The translations under genes and the position numbers were made by a program. The notes under the pieces are model-generated. The model did no database searches. It was not told the origin of the DNA and saw only the letters and a program-made list of their open reading frames with translations. From Pseudobdellovibrionaceae bacterium (lineage in GTDB: Bacteria > Bdellovibrionota > FAC87 > UBA2466 > JACKAF01), in assembly GCA_020635235.1 (NCBI GenBank), contig JACKAF010000003.1:76051-140050 (forward strand): a stretch of DNA of 64,000 nucleotides, given 5' to 3'. Shown here one piece after another: positions 58,109-59,814 of this stretch (position 1 is the first letter of the stretch; every line of letters begins with the position of its first letter).

Positions 58109-58181
58109 GGGCCGCTAGCTCAGTCGGTAGAGCACCTCCCTTTTAAGGAGGGGGCCGTTGGTTCGAGTCCAACGCGGCTCA
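58109..58181 (+). tRNA. tRNA-Lys (anticodon TTT)
   Basis: GGGCCGCTAGCTCAGTCGGTAGAGCACCTCCCTTTTAAGGAGGGGGCCGTTGGTTCGAGTCCAACGCGGCTCA folds as a cloverleaf with anticodon loop CTTTTAA. No encoded CCA. Confidence 0.9.
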
Positions 58182-58272
58182 CTTTAAAGTCTAAGTAGGG
58201 ACTCGTTCCCTTCGGGGTCGAGTCCAACGCGGCTCACTTTAAAGTCTAAGTAGGGACTCGTTCCCTTCGGGG
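58163..58272 (+). repeat. perfect 2 x 55-bp tandem repeat: last 19 nt of tRNA-Lys plus 36-nt trailer
   Basis: 58163-58217 and 58218-58272 are identical (tcgagtccaacgcggctcactttaaagtctaagtagggactcgttcccttcgggg). The unit starts at T-loop position 55. Confidence 0.95.
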
Positions 58273-58386
58273 TACCCAAGTTTCTCTCCCTTAACACATG
58301 TAACCTGCATTTTTGCTCTGGCGTGGTGTCTGCGCTGAAGAGCGTTTTTAATCATAATATAGAGGTCCAAAAAACTAGGGGGCGAT

Positions 58387-59172
58387 ATGCGATTCCTTTC
58401 GGTTGTGATGCTGTTTTTGGCGATTGGCGTTAATGCGCGGGCGGAGCGCGGCTTGGATGCGCTGCGCGGGGAATACCCAATTCTTGAGTATGATGGGGAC
58501 ACCTTAGCTTCTGGGTACGTGCAGATAATCTCCGATGAAAACGTGATCGGCGTGTACGTCAGTGGATTGGCTCTGGCTTCACGGCCAGCCCTCAACCTGA
58601 GCGTTCTTACCCCCTCAGCGAATACCGATGTCTCGGAGGACTCCGATCGGGTTACCCAGCGGTACAGTGATGGCCGCGGTTCTTCAAGAATAGAGTACAC
58701 GCGCCACACGGGTTATCTGGAGATCCAAACAGAAGTCTGCGTCGAAGGTGACGGCTGTGAACGCAATACGATCTTTGCGGGTCAAACCGGCTCTCCGGGG
58801 ACAGAAATCGATTACGATACGTTTTTTCTCGCGACGGCGGGGATGTACAAGATTCAATCGGCCGGCGGGGCACCTCCAAAACCGGAGAATGAAGGGGCCA
58901 TCGTCGACGGGAACTTCGGCTATCTTATGCTTCCCTACTGCGAACCAGGTGGCGCGTGCAATCCGGGATATATTTTTGTCGATCGAGCCTCCACCCGTTT
59001 CTTCCGTCGGGAAGGCACTGCCGGGACTCAGTTGGATATGGTGCTAAGCCAAAACGGAGCCGTTCGTTACTACAGTTGGACGGAGCGAGGGGACGGTGAA
59101 GTTTTGTTTCGGGATTTCCAGTACCGTCTAAACGAAGCCCGCGTCTGCATGGAGCACGTGCTCATCCGCTAG
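58387..59172 (+). CDS. secreted hypothetical protein
   Basis: Signal peptide MRFLSVVMLFLAIGVNARA. No recognisable domain. Confidence 0.55.
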   Translation: MRFLSVVMLFLAIGVNARAERGLDALRGEYPILEYDGDTLASGYVQIISDENVIGVYVSGLALASRPALNLSVLTPSANTDVSEDSDRVTQRYSDGRGSSRIEYTRHTGYLEIQTEVCVEGDGCERNTIFAGQTGSPGTEIDYDTFFLATAGMYKIQSAGGAPPKPENEGAIVDGNFGYLMLPYCEPGGACNPGYIFVDRASTRFFRREGTAGTQLDMVLSQNGAVRYYSWTERGDGEVLFRDFQYRLNEARVCMEHVLIR

Positions 59173-59174
59173 TT

Positions 59175-59639
59175 TTACCAGCGGTGGTAGGCGGGGTGTC
59201 CGGGCGTTACCGCAACGAAAACACCTTCGCACAAGGCACAGGTTTTTCCACCTGCGATTAACTCCGCTTTGATGGTTGCCTTGTCGTCGCTAGAGTCCAC
59301 CACACGAGAAACGAGTTCCACCTTGCCAGACGTTGGCGTCGGTCTAAGCAGCTTGATGCTATAGCTTGCGGTTACCGTACAAGGTGGTGTGGCGGCTTTT
59401 GTTTTTTGCATCAGGTGCCAAGCTGCGGTCCAGTTGGAATGGCAATCCAATAAGGCTCCAACGATCCCACCGTTCAGTACCCCCGGGAACGCCTCATATT
59501 TTTTTTGAGGGGACCACACCGCTCGGACCTCATCTCCCACAACAAAACTCTTTATTTGCAGGCCTTCCCCATTGGATGGGCCGCAGCCAAAACATTCGTT
59601 GTGAGGGGCATACTTGTCTTGAAGGGCTTGGTTTTCCAC
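59175..59639 (-). CDS. hotdog-fold thioesterase (PaaI-like) with N-terminal CxxC
   Basis: NECFGCGPSNGEGLQ and PGVLNGGIVGALLD are typical of PaaI/4HBT-type thioesterases. GTG start follows GGAG. Confidence 0.7.
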   Translation of the reverse strand: MENQALQDKYAPHNECFGCGPSNGEGLQIKSFVVGDEVRAVWSPQKKYEAFPGVLNGGIVGALLDCHSNWTAAWHLMQKTKAATPPCTVTASYSIKLLRPTPTSGKVELVSRVVDSSDDKATIKAELIAGGKTCALCEGVFVAVTPGHPAYHRW

Positions 59640-59666
59640 GATCTCCGCCCAGAAGGTTTGGGCAGG

Positions 59667-59759
59667 GAACGAATCACCGCCCTAAAAACTGGGCGGTAAG
59701 GGATTCGACCGCGAAGCGAACGAATCACCGCCCTAAAAACTGGGCGGTAAGGGATTCGA
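59667..59759 (-). repeat. 2 x 42-bp perfect direct repeat (51-bp period): last 19 nt of tRNA-Arg plus 23-nt trailer
   Basis: 59667-59708 and 59718-59759 are identical (plus strand gaacgaatcaccgccctaaaaactgggcggtaagggattcga), separated by a 9-bp spacer. In tRNA sense the unit starts at T-loop position 55. Confidence 0.95.
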
Positions 59760-59814
59760 ACCCCTGACCCCGTGGTTCGAAGCCACGTGCTCTATCCAAC
59801 TGAGCTAACCGCCC
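59741..59814 (-). tRNA. tRNA-Arg (anticodon TCG)
   Basis: Reverse complement GGGCGGTTAGCTCAGTTGGATAGAGCACGTGGCTTCGAACCACGGGGTCAGGGGTTCGAATCCCTTACCGCCCA has anticodon loop CTTCGAA. No encoded CCA. Confidence 0.9.

Follow-up and report, generated by a model that had tools for sequence, protein, structure and literature searches.

Repeated tRNA tails joined by a T-loop-matched palindromic linker in one genus of Pseudobdellovibrionaceae: a possible DNA-level module

The tRNA-Arg(TCG) gene in the window, by which we mean the whole 64,000-nucleotide stretch of contig JACKAF010000003.1 analyzed here, is followed by an exact 42-nt direct repeat that brings a second copy of the end of the gene, and the same arrangement of a palindromic linker and a copied tRNA tail recurs behind other tRNA genes of the same genus. 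We found that the linker types are common to unrelated tRNA loci, that two species carry their arrays at different tRNA genes, and that the arrays expand to two to six units and also decay. The reading we prefer, with a probability of about 45%, is that the tail array is a genus-specific, gene-less module at the DNA level, which would target T-loop-coding DNA, duplicate the tail, and then vary by slippage. The features of the window on which the analysis is based are as follows.

59741..59814, minus strand: tRNA-Arg(TCG), 74 nt, without an encoded CCA (ARAGORN; Rfam RF00005, 70.6 bits)
59718..59759, minus strand: repeat unit 1, the tRNA tail T55-A73 (59759-59741) plus a 23-nt trailer (exact string match)
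59727..59733, minus strand: GGGCGGT, "mimic 1," a copy of the 5' acceptor strand (sequence; found at Arg only among the 13 junctions listed)
59702..59726, minus strand: 25-nt junction palindrome, made of the anti-T-loop GATTCG, TT, CGC-TTC-GCG, GT, and the CGAATC of the tail copy (folding)
59717-59709, minus strand: linker core GCTTCGCGG, the sole non-duplicated bases between units 1 and 2 (sequence)
59667..59708, minus strand: repeat unit 2 (exact string match), with the tail copy at 59708-59690, mimic 2 at 59682-59676, anti-T-loop 2 at 59675-59670, and TTC at 59669-59667
59645..59666, minus strand: CCTGCCCAAACCTTCT and GGGCGG beyond unit 2 (alignment with the sister species G001)
59175..59639, minus strand: hotdog-fold thioesterase-like ORF with a GTG start, directly downstream of the tRNA-Arg array (ORF list)
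58109..58272, plus strand: tRNA-Lys(TTT) array, a perfect 55-bp x 2 tail repeat (58163-58272) of the CCTTCGGGG linker type (TRF score 222, 100% matches)

A script located the 42-nt string at 59759-59718 and 59708-59667, exactly two occurrences with GCTTCGCGG between them and a 51-bp period, as the earlier note had described. Chance cannot be the source of such an exact repeat behind tRNA-Arg. Also in agreement with that note, the first base of the unit is canonical T55 (gene index 56) and the discriminator A73 is included, and the tail copy equals the last 19 bases of the gene. The 23-nt trailer consists, in order, of GTTTTTA, GGGCGGT, GATTCG, and TTC, of which GGGCGGT (59733-59727 and 59682-59676) reproduces the 5' acceptor strand of tRNA-Arg letter for letter. 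Beyond unit 2, the segment 59645..59666 and the preceding 10 bases form a 32-nt stretch that is absent from G001 and holds the second anti-T-loop; what follows this anti-T-loop may be a decayed third unit. The GGGCGG within 59645..59666 is native trailer beside the ribosome-binding site of the thioesterase-like ORF, whose Pfam 4HBT_2/4HBT matches are below the cut-off. The sole RNA run with this organism covers 59201-59448.

The two-copy form is spanned by contigs of two other wastewater/sludge samples (X4 and X6), and these strains differ from the window by two changes, an A to T at 59734 and an extra G at 59730-59731 (tRNA strand), both in the first trailer only. Because these contigs span both copies and carry the two differences, the tRNA-Arg repeat is no assembly artifact and is present in other strains, and the restriction of the changes to the first trailer means that the two units are not identical in all populations. 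One contig from run X2 skips exactly 51 nt at the repeat. This skip is probably an assembler collapse of the 42-nt repeat at k=31 and not a one-copy allele, and the depth of the X2 bin suggests that the second copy is present there too. Among the assembler contigs of the public runs, no clean case of a filled versus empty polymorphism within the species was seen, the lone 51-nt skip being ambiguous.

We scanned every tRNA gene of the source genome (G000; 2.6 Mb, 11 contigs, 52.8% G+C, 79% complete) and found a linker with a T55 tail copy at 7 of the 37, namely, Ser-GCT (x3), Ser-GGA (x3), Asn (x2), Ala-CGC (x2), Gln-CTG (x3), Lys-TTT (x2), and Arg-TCG (x2). The earlier note had placed the same kind of 3'-end duplication at another tRNA of the window, and tRNA-Lys(TTT) indeed carries it, with the same linker type in its two 55-bp units. 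A terminator-like hairpin with a T-run lies past this array at 58332-58345, and the array, upstream of this first terminator-like site, is probably co-transcribed inside the tRNA transcript. Between the two convergent tRNA genes of the window lies a 261-aa ORF (58387-59172, plus strand), which has a hydrophobic, signal-like N-terminus by eye and no Pfam or NCBIfam match.

The extent of the duplicated segment varies among loci. At Ser-GCT, Ala, Arg (of G001), Val-GAC, and Thr, the layout is insertion-like: the identical stretch begins at T55, ends 1 to 9 nt past the gene, and is followed by the linker, the tail, and the native flank, while the units of Lys, Ser-GGA, and Gly-CCC have fully duplicated trailers. 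In the Gln-CTG array (G000:C4:354700-355000), both extra tails show a G-to-A change of the discriminator relative to the gene; the linker, the tail, and the first 9 trailer nucleotides are identical among the units, and the mid-trailers differ at about one-third of positions, a mosaic conservation centered on the junction. G000 also has a second kind of tail array, at tRNA-Leu(TAA) (97-bp period, 3 copies; G000:C5:214650-215011) and tRNA-Val(CAC) (94-bp period, 2 copies; G000:C5:237580-237841), where the partial copies start in the anticodon/variable region and have no linker hairpin. Behind tRNA-Ser(TGA) (G000:C1:102838-102870), a solo GGTGATTCGTTC stands 8 nt past the gene, followed by a T-rich run, with neither hairpin nor tail copy; this is an array that has collapsed or else the trailer motif in its primary form.

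Across the family, the linker is laid out as GGTG, a 6-nt anti-T-loop, TTC, a small GC hairpin, and then G, and the palindromic linker measures 19 to 40 nt. The anti-T-loop, that is, the 6 nt before TTC, complements positions 56 to 61 of the T-loop of its own gene, exactly or nearly, at every locus, and the pairs observed are GATTCG/CGAATC, GACTCG/CGAGTC, GGTTCG/CGAACC, and GAATCG/CGATTC. Eight of 11 independent loci show a perfect match, with four different hexamers, and when the arms were shuffled among loci such a result was reached in about 1 of 10,000 trials (permutation p ~1e-4). In the inner stem, a C-G to G-C swap separates the linker types. All 13 junctions listed fold, with energies of -5.5 to -13 kcal/mol that are about equal on both strands. 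The Arg junction palindrome, which is identical in G001, reaches -9.6 kcal/mol in sense and -8.4 in antisense, and its hairpin between the anti-T-loop and the T-loop of copy 2 has a pairing probability of 0.96 to 0.99 in every folding context. The strand asymmetry of hairpin stability was rejected as a discriminator between the RNA and DNA levels, sense and antisense being alike. The junction hairpin is a real, maintained palindrome, and its strand symmetry is silent on whether it acts as RNA or as DNA. The complementarity of the anti-T-loop could be kept either through palindrome correction via template switching or by selection.

Linkers are shared among unrelated tRNA loci, with 15-nt linkers that match exactly between non-orthologous genes and between the two species. 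Of the 15 occurrences of the linker motif TTCG-S-GGTCGA in G000, 10 lie at tail arrays, and the core GCTTCGCGG is also found at the Asn and Gln arrays of G000 and at the Thr and Arg arrays of G001. The copy starts exactly at T55 in 13 of the 13 listed junctions. Microhomology at the borders amounts to only ~1 nt, on which ground microhomology-driven slippage was rejected as the origin of the arrays. An origin of the linker from the anticodon/variable region of its own gene by internal deletion was likewise rejected; it fits Arg, Ala, and Lys loosely, fails at Asn, Gln, Ser-GGA, Ser-GCT, and Thr, and is contradicted by identical linkers at different tRNAs.

The sister species G001, of the same genus, has at least 6 tRNA genes with the same build, and its arrays stand at Gly-CCC (~6 tail copies, some with indels), Val-GAC, Thr-CGT, Arg-TCG, Ala-CGC, SeC, and Lys-CTT, a set largely different from that of G000, where Val-GAC lacks an array and nothing but a decayed remnant stands at Gly-CCC. 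Degenerate copies are also seen at Lys and SeC in G001, in which the orthologous Lys-TTT copy has decayed. As the array sets and their decay differ between the two species, the arrays have been gained, expanded, and lost on the time scale of species divergence. A search of 35 other genomes of the order for the exact linker gave no match. A 19-nt linker motif gave more than 116 matches in ~185,000 species genomes, a number that fits a rough chance estimate, and among the 80 matches listed only two adjoin a tRNA, both in the Bdellovibrionota metagenome-assembled genome (MAG) that is G001; a wider spread of the linker was rejected on these grounds. The 25-nt palindrome pattern had no match in JGI metagenome contigs. 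A loose spaced linker pattern gave counts close to those of the reversed-pattern control, and an excess in G008 looked like chance at the one locus examined.

Comparison of the Arg locus dates the insertion. Both G002, from another genus of the same family, and G015, from the same order, have the thioesterase-like gene 20 to 26 nt behind tRNA-Arg(TCG), and neither has a copy or a linker there. The pairing of the two genes, seen in G001, G002, and G015, is conserved across the order, and the sites without a copy imply that the unit was inserted within this genus. The ancestor of both species of the genus thus acquired the module in the interval that separates tRNA-Arg from the thioesterase-like gene. 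In G001, the locus reads tRNA, trailer, the same linker, the 19-nt tail, and native trailer into the start of the thioesterase-like gene, and the sequence between the duplicated parts is ~19 nt long there, compared with 9 nt in G000. Alignment of the two species reveals an identical 46-nt block that begins with GCGG, takes in the anti-T-loop, hairpin, and tail copy, and ends with GTTT, against which identity is ~50% in the 16-nt 5' leader and ~78% in the coding region. This block and the Gln mosaic point to constraint, which a purely neutral scar would not have, and they are the chief observation that such a reading leaves unexplained. The junction block could be kept intact by selection, by a gene-conversion hotspot at the hairpin, or by a requirement of the copying process.

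The earlier note had further proposed that the copied tail closes an acceptor-like helix with GGGCGGT, giving a minihelix-like fold, and this reading of the acceptor-stem mimic is partly supported, in that the fold is possible but reflects no family design. The isolated 44-mer 59733-59690 takes the proposed shape (-25.1 kcal/mol, z -5.3); however, the GGGCGGT/ACCGCCC helix is not directly stacked on GATTCG/CGAATC, a 4-nt bulge (CCUU) intervening. The fold comprises 7 bp, the 4-nt bulge, 6 bp, a mismatch, 4 bp, and a 3-nt loop UUC, so that the 44-mer contains no continuous ~12-bp acceptor/T helix with a 7-nt T-loop cap. In a 175-nt transcript, the acceptor-like helix has a predicted probability of 0.22 in free folding and 0.02 with the cloverleaf enforced, and it has 0.02 in the trailer alone; for an RNA cut exactly after the discriminator of the copy, and only then, the value rises to 0.997, and otherwise the acceptor strand of the copy pairs with downstream GGGCGG sequences. 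With the T-loop bases of the copy paired in these models, no T-loop elbow would be offered to RNase P, RNase Z, or the CCA-adding enzyme. Nor is the mimic a feature of the family: it covers 7 nt at Arg and 6 nt at the Arg locus of G001, and at most 3 nt at the other 11 listed junctions. In both species GG(G)CGG lies in the native trailer beside the ribosome-binding site of the thioesterase-like gene, and since it is native to both trailers, the mimic looks like duplicated native sequence plus one linker base (the first T). It appears that the Arg mimic is native GGGCGG caught inside the duplicated segment.

We therefore regard it as highly improbable that the tail and GGGCGGT form a tRNA-like minihelix that is processed by RNase P, RNase Z, or the CCA-adding enzyme into a functional small RNA. 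The shape and stability of the isolated 44-mer speak for such a product, as does the retention of 6 of 7 mimic nucleotides in G001 and of the mimic in the X4/X6 strain variants, and the helix would be the first to form during transcription. Weighing more heavily are the low probability of the helix in the full transcript, its bulge and lack of a free T-loop, the absence of the mimic from the other 11 listed junctions, and the duplication of native trailer, which accounts for it. In a cmscan of Rfam with E up to 1, two tRNAs and one chance riboswitch match were returned and nothing else, and the tail copy drew no tRNA or tRNA-like match. With tRNA acceptor/T-arm minihelix substrates the element shares a 7-bp helix of the tRNA's own acceptor sequence that ends in the discriminator; it differs from them in the 4-nt bulge, the paired T-loop bases, the UUC loop, and the lack of conservation in the family.

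The search for a responsible enzyme covered both species and yielded none, which counts against the module that we prefer. G000, which is 79% complete, has only one tyrosine recombinase, of the Xer type and on another contig, and no phage-type integrase, Y1 transposase, or reverse transcriptase, absences that carry little weight at this completeness. Against the integron-integrase model (cut-off, 265), the Xer-type protein reaches 114 bits; as to integron attC sites, G000 gave no IntI-level match and the array units hold no ORF. In G001, a 415-aa integrase has no tRNA within 1.5 kb on either side, and neither this gene nor the RAYT/IS200-like (HUH-type Y1 transposase) genes are linked to any array. 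The latter encode 268 and 244 aa with weak Y1_Tnp matches (G001:C12:16000-20000; G001:C4:113800-117000) and have no counterpart at the syntenic sites of G000; one of them terminates 35 nt behind tRNA-Val(TAC), and the other lies between perfect ~23-nt inverted repeats. They were rejected as the likely engine of the arrays, being present in G001 only and having ends without similarity to the linker. A phage attP with the linker was rejected as well, the 6 viral-contig matches all being chance-like with no tRNA nearby.

In the DNA-level module that we prefer, there would be two parts, the conserved palindromic linker and the direct tRNA copy from T55 to a few bases past the 3' end. Its birth would be an event in DNA aimed at the T-loop-coding sequence, and it would duplicate the tail in the manner of a target duplication or an att core. 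Slipped-strand or unequal recombination among the repeated tails, aided by the hairpin, would later change the copy number, and the tail copy would be a by-product and no working part of a tRNA. The equal stability of the hairpin on both strands is as expected of a DNA palindrome. A more specific version, distinctly unlikely in our estimation, takes the linker as the cis part of a tiny self-propagating module, in which a 6-nt guide-like segment is set in a constant scaffold (GGTG ... TTC-hairpin-G) and is used by a putative enzyme that recognizes single strands or hairpins. The guide-like segment would pair with the T-loop-coding DNA (56 to 61), so that the module could land behind any tRNA gene and copy its tail.

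A different possibility is that the junction hairpin serves the host as a cis-acting RNA element in the pre-tRNA trailer, either as a processing or stability signal or as an insulator against a trailer that invades the tRNA fold, with the tail copy kept since it supplies one arm of the hairpin. We consider this unlikely, but the conservation pattern keeps an RNA role in play: the linker and tail are identical across species between diverged flanks, the Gln array shows the same mosaic, and the anti-T-loop covaries with the T-loop, although this covariation could also come from palindrome correction at the DNA level. The high pairing probability, the folding of every listed junction, and the base-pair swap in the inner stem also suit an RNA structure, yet the equal sense and antisense stabilities leave no G-U signature of one. 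The position of the Lys array before the first terminator-like site, and its probable co-transcription, accord with a role in the transcript, and a precedent exists in Methanopyrus kandleri, where a lineage-specific palindrome lies ~10 bp after tRNA genes and the authors guess at a maturation signal (PMC5217627). Against such an element, it is present behind a minority of tRNA genes only, the two species have arrays at different ones, and several are decaying; moreover, the hairpin needs only positions 56 to 61, and yet the whole tail, often with the trailer, is duplicated.

The arrays might also be scars or miniatures of tRNA-integrating elements, each made of attL, a tiny remnant, and attR left by a tyrosine integrase with its crossover point in the T-loop; the linker would then be the core arm on the element side, with these att-only mini-elements mobilized in trans. 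MAG assemblies often lose integrative elements, and the block of identity from the T-loop to just past the 3' end, with foreign sequence between the copies, has the expected form. The Leu-TAA and Val-CAC arrays start in the anticodon/variable region, a classic att position, and T-loop crossover is established for phage integrases, such as that of mycobacteriophage Ms6 (PMC1762012). We nevertheless hold this idea to be quite improbable, because the "element" is only 19 to 40 nt long with the same linker at 13 or more tRNA genes, which independent deletions would not yield, and because the Lys, Ser-GGA, and Gly-CCC units are tandem duplications and not serial integrations. The lack of a phage-type integrase in G000, the distance of the G001 integrase from any tRNA, and the failure to find a viral contig with the linker beside a tRNA tail point the same way. 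Very doubtful, finally, is a pure replication-slippage minisatellite without any element, in which fork stalling at tRNA genes, helped by the TTCGAA core and hairpins, would lead by template switching to inverted and direct tail copies, the linkers being alike by convergence. Perfect arrays of two to three units do look young, a pause-and-misalignment model has been proposed for tandem repeats of vertebrate mitochondrial genomes (PMC3599147), and the inverted-plus-direct layout recurs with an unrelated module at tRNA-Arg of another family (G032); but random slippage would not be expected to give identical 15-nt linkers at non-orthologous loci and in both species, or an exact T55 start at every listed junction with so little microhomology.

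Among known systems, the E. coli tyrT/tyrV loci (RtT RNA, rttR, tpr; RF00391) are the closest analogue. There too, tandem units stand directly behind a tRNA gene, each opening with the last 19 nt of the gene from within the T-loop, the first unit overlaps the gene, and a different sequence follows the last copy; in MG1655, the final 19 nt of tyrV (from A58) are followed by three further copies with 178-bp spacing under rttR/tpr. The unit is 51 bp here and 178 bp in E. coli, and the start is T55 here and A58 there. Our arrays have no tpr-like ORF and no RF00391 match (cmscan, E up to 1), and they involve many tRNA genes and a palindromic linker with a T-loop-matched arm, which the E. coli junction lacks. 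In G032, a genome from another family of the order, a 178-bp module lies behind tRNA-Arg(TCG) (G032:C63:10242-11991) and contains a T-arm piece in inverted orientation (11 of 12 nt) followed by 18 nt of directly copied tail, with a second, truncated module after it.

Likeness to mobile elements is partial. Like attL/attR duplications and att-only cis-mobilizable elements, the arrays have a direct repeat from the T-loop to past the gene end with foreign sequence between, but the intervening DNA is 9 to 40 nt long and gene-less, the same linker is found at 13 or more tRNA species, and no integrase is linked. With REP/RAYT and IS200/IS605 ends they share a small GC hairpin and a short 5' segment complementary to a site 3' of the hairpin, and the linker hairpin would match in topology the pairing of guide and cleavage site at IS200/IS605 ends. 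They differ in having no GTAG or CGTC tag and no Y1 transposase in G000 (79% complete); the RAYT/IS200-like genes of G001 have no sequence link to the linker, and IS200/IS605 elements make no target duplication. Our literature searches found no description of this family of linker and tail arrays.

E. coli (tyrT/RtT) has for decades been known to carry tail repeats behind tRNA genes, and we know of no accepted mechanism for them. With its shared linker, locus-matched 6-nt arm, empty sites, and expanding and decaying arrays, the young multi-locus family described here offers a route to the birth of such repeats, and if the self-propagating form of the module were true, the E. coli RtT repeat would be a product of the same general mechanism. 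In practical terms, the arrays mimic att sites without islands, by which island finders would be misled, and they break short-read assemblies at tRNA genes.
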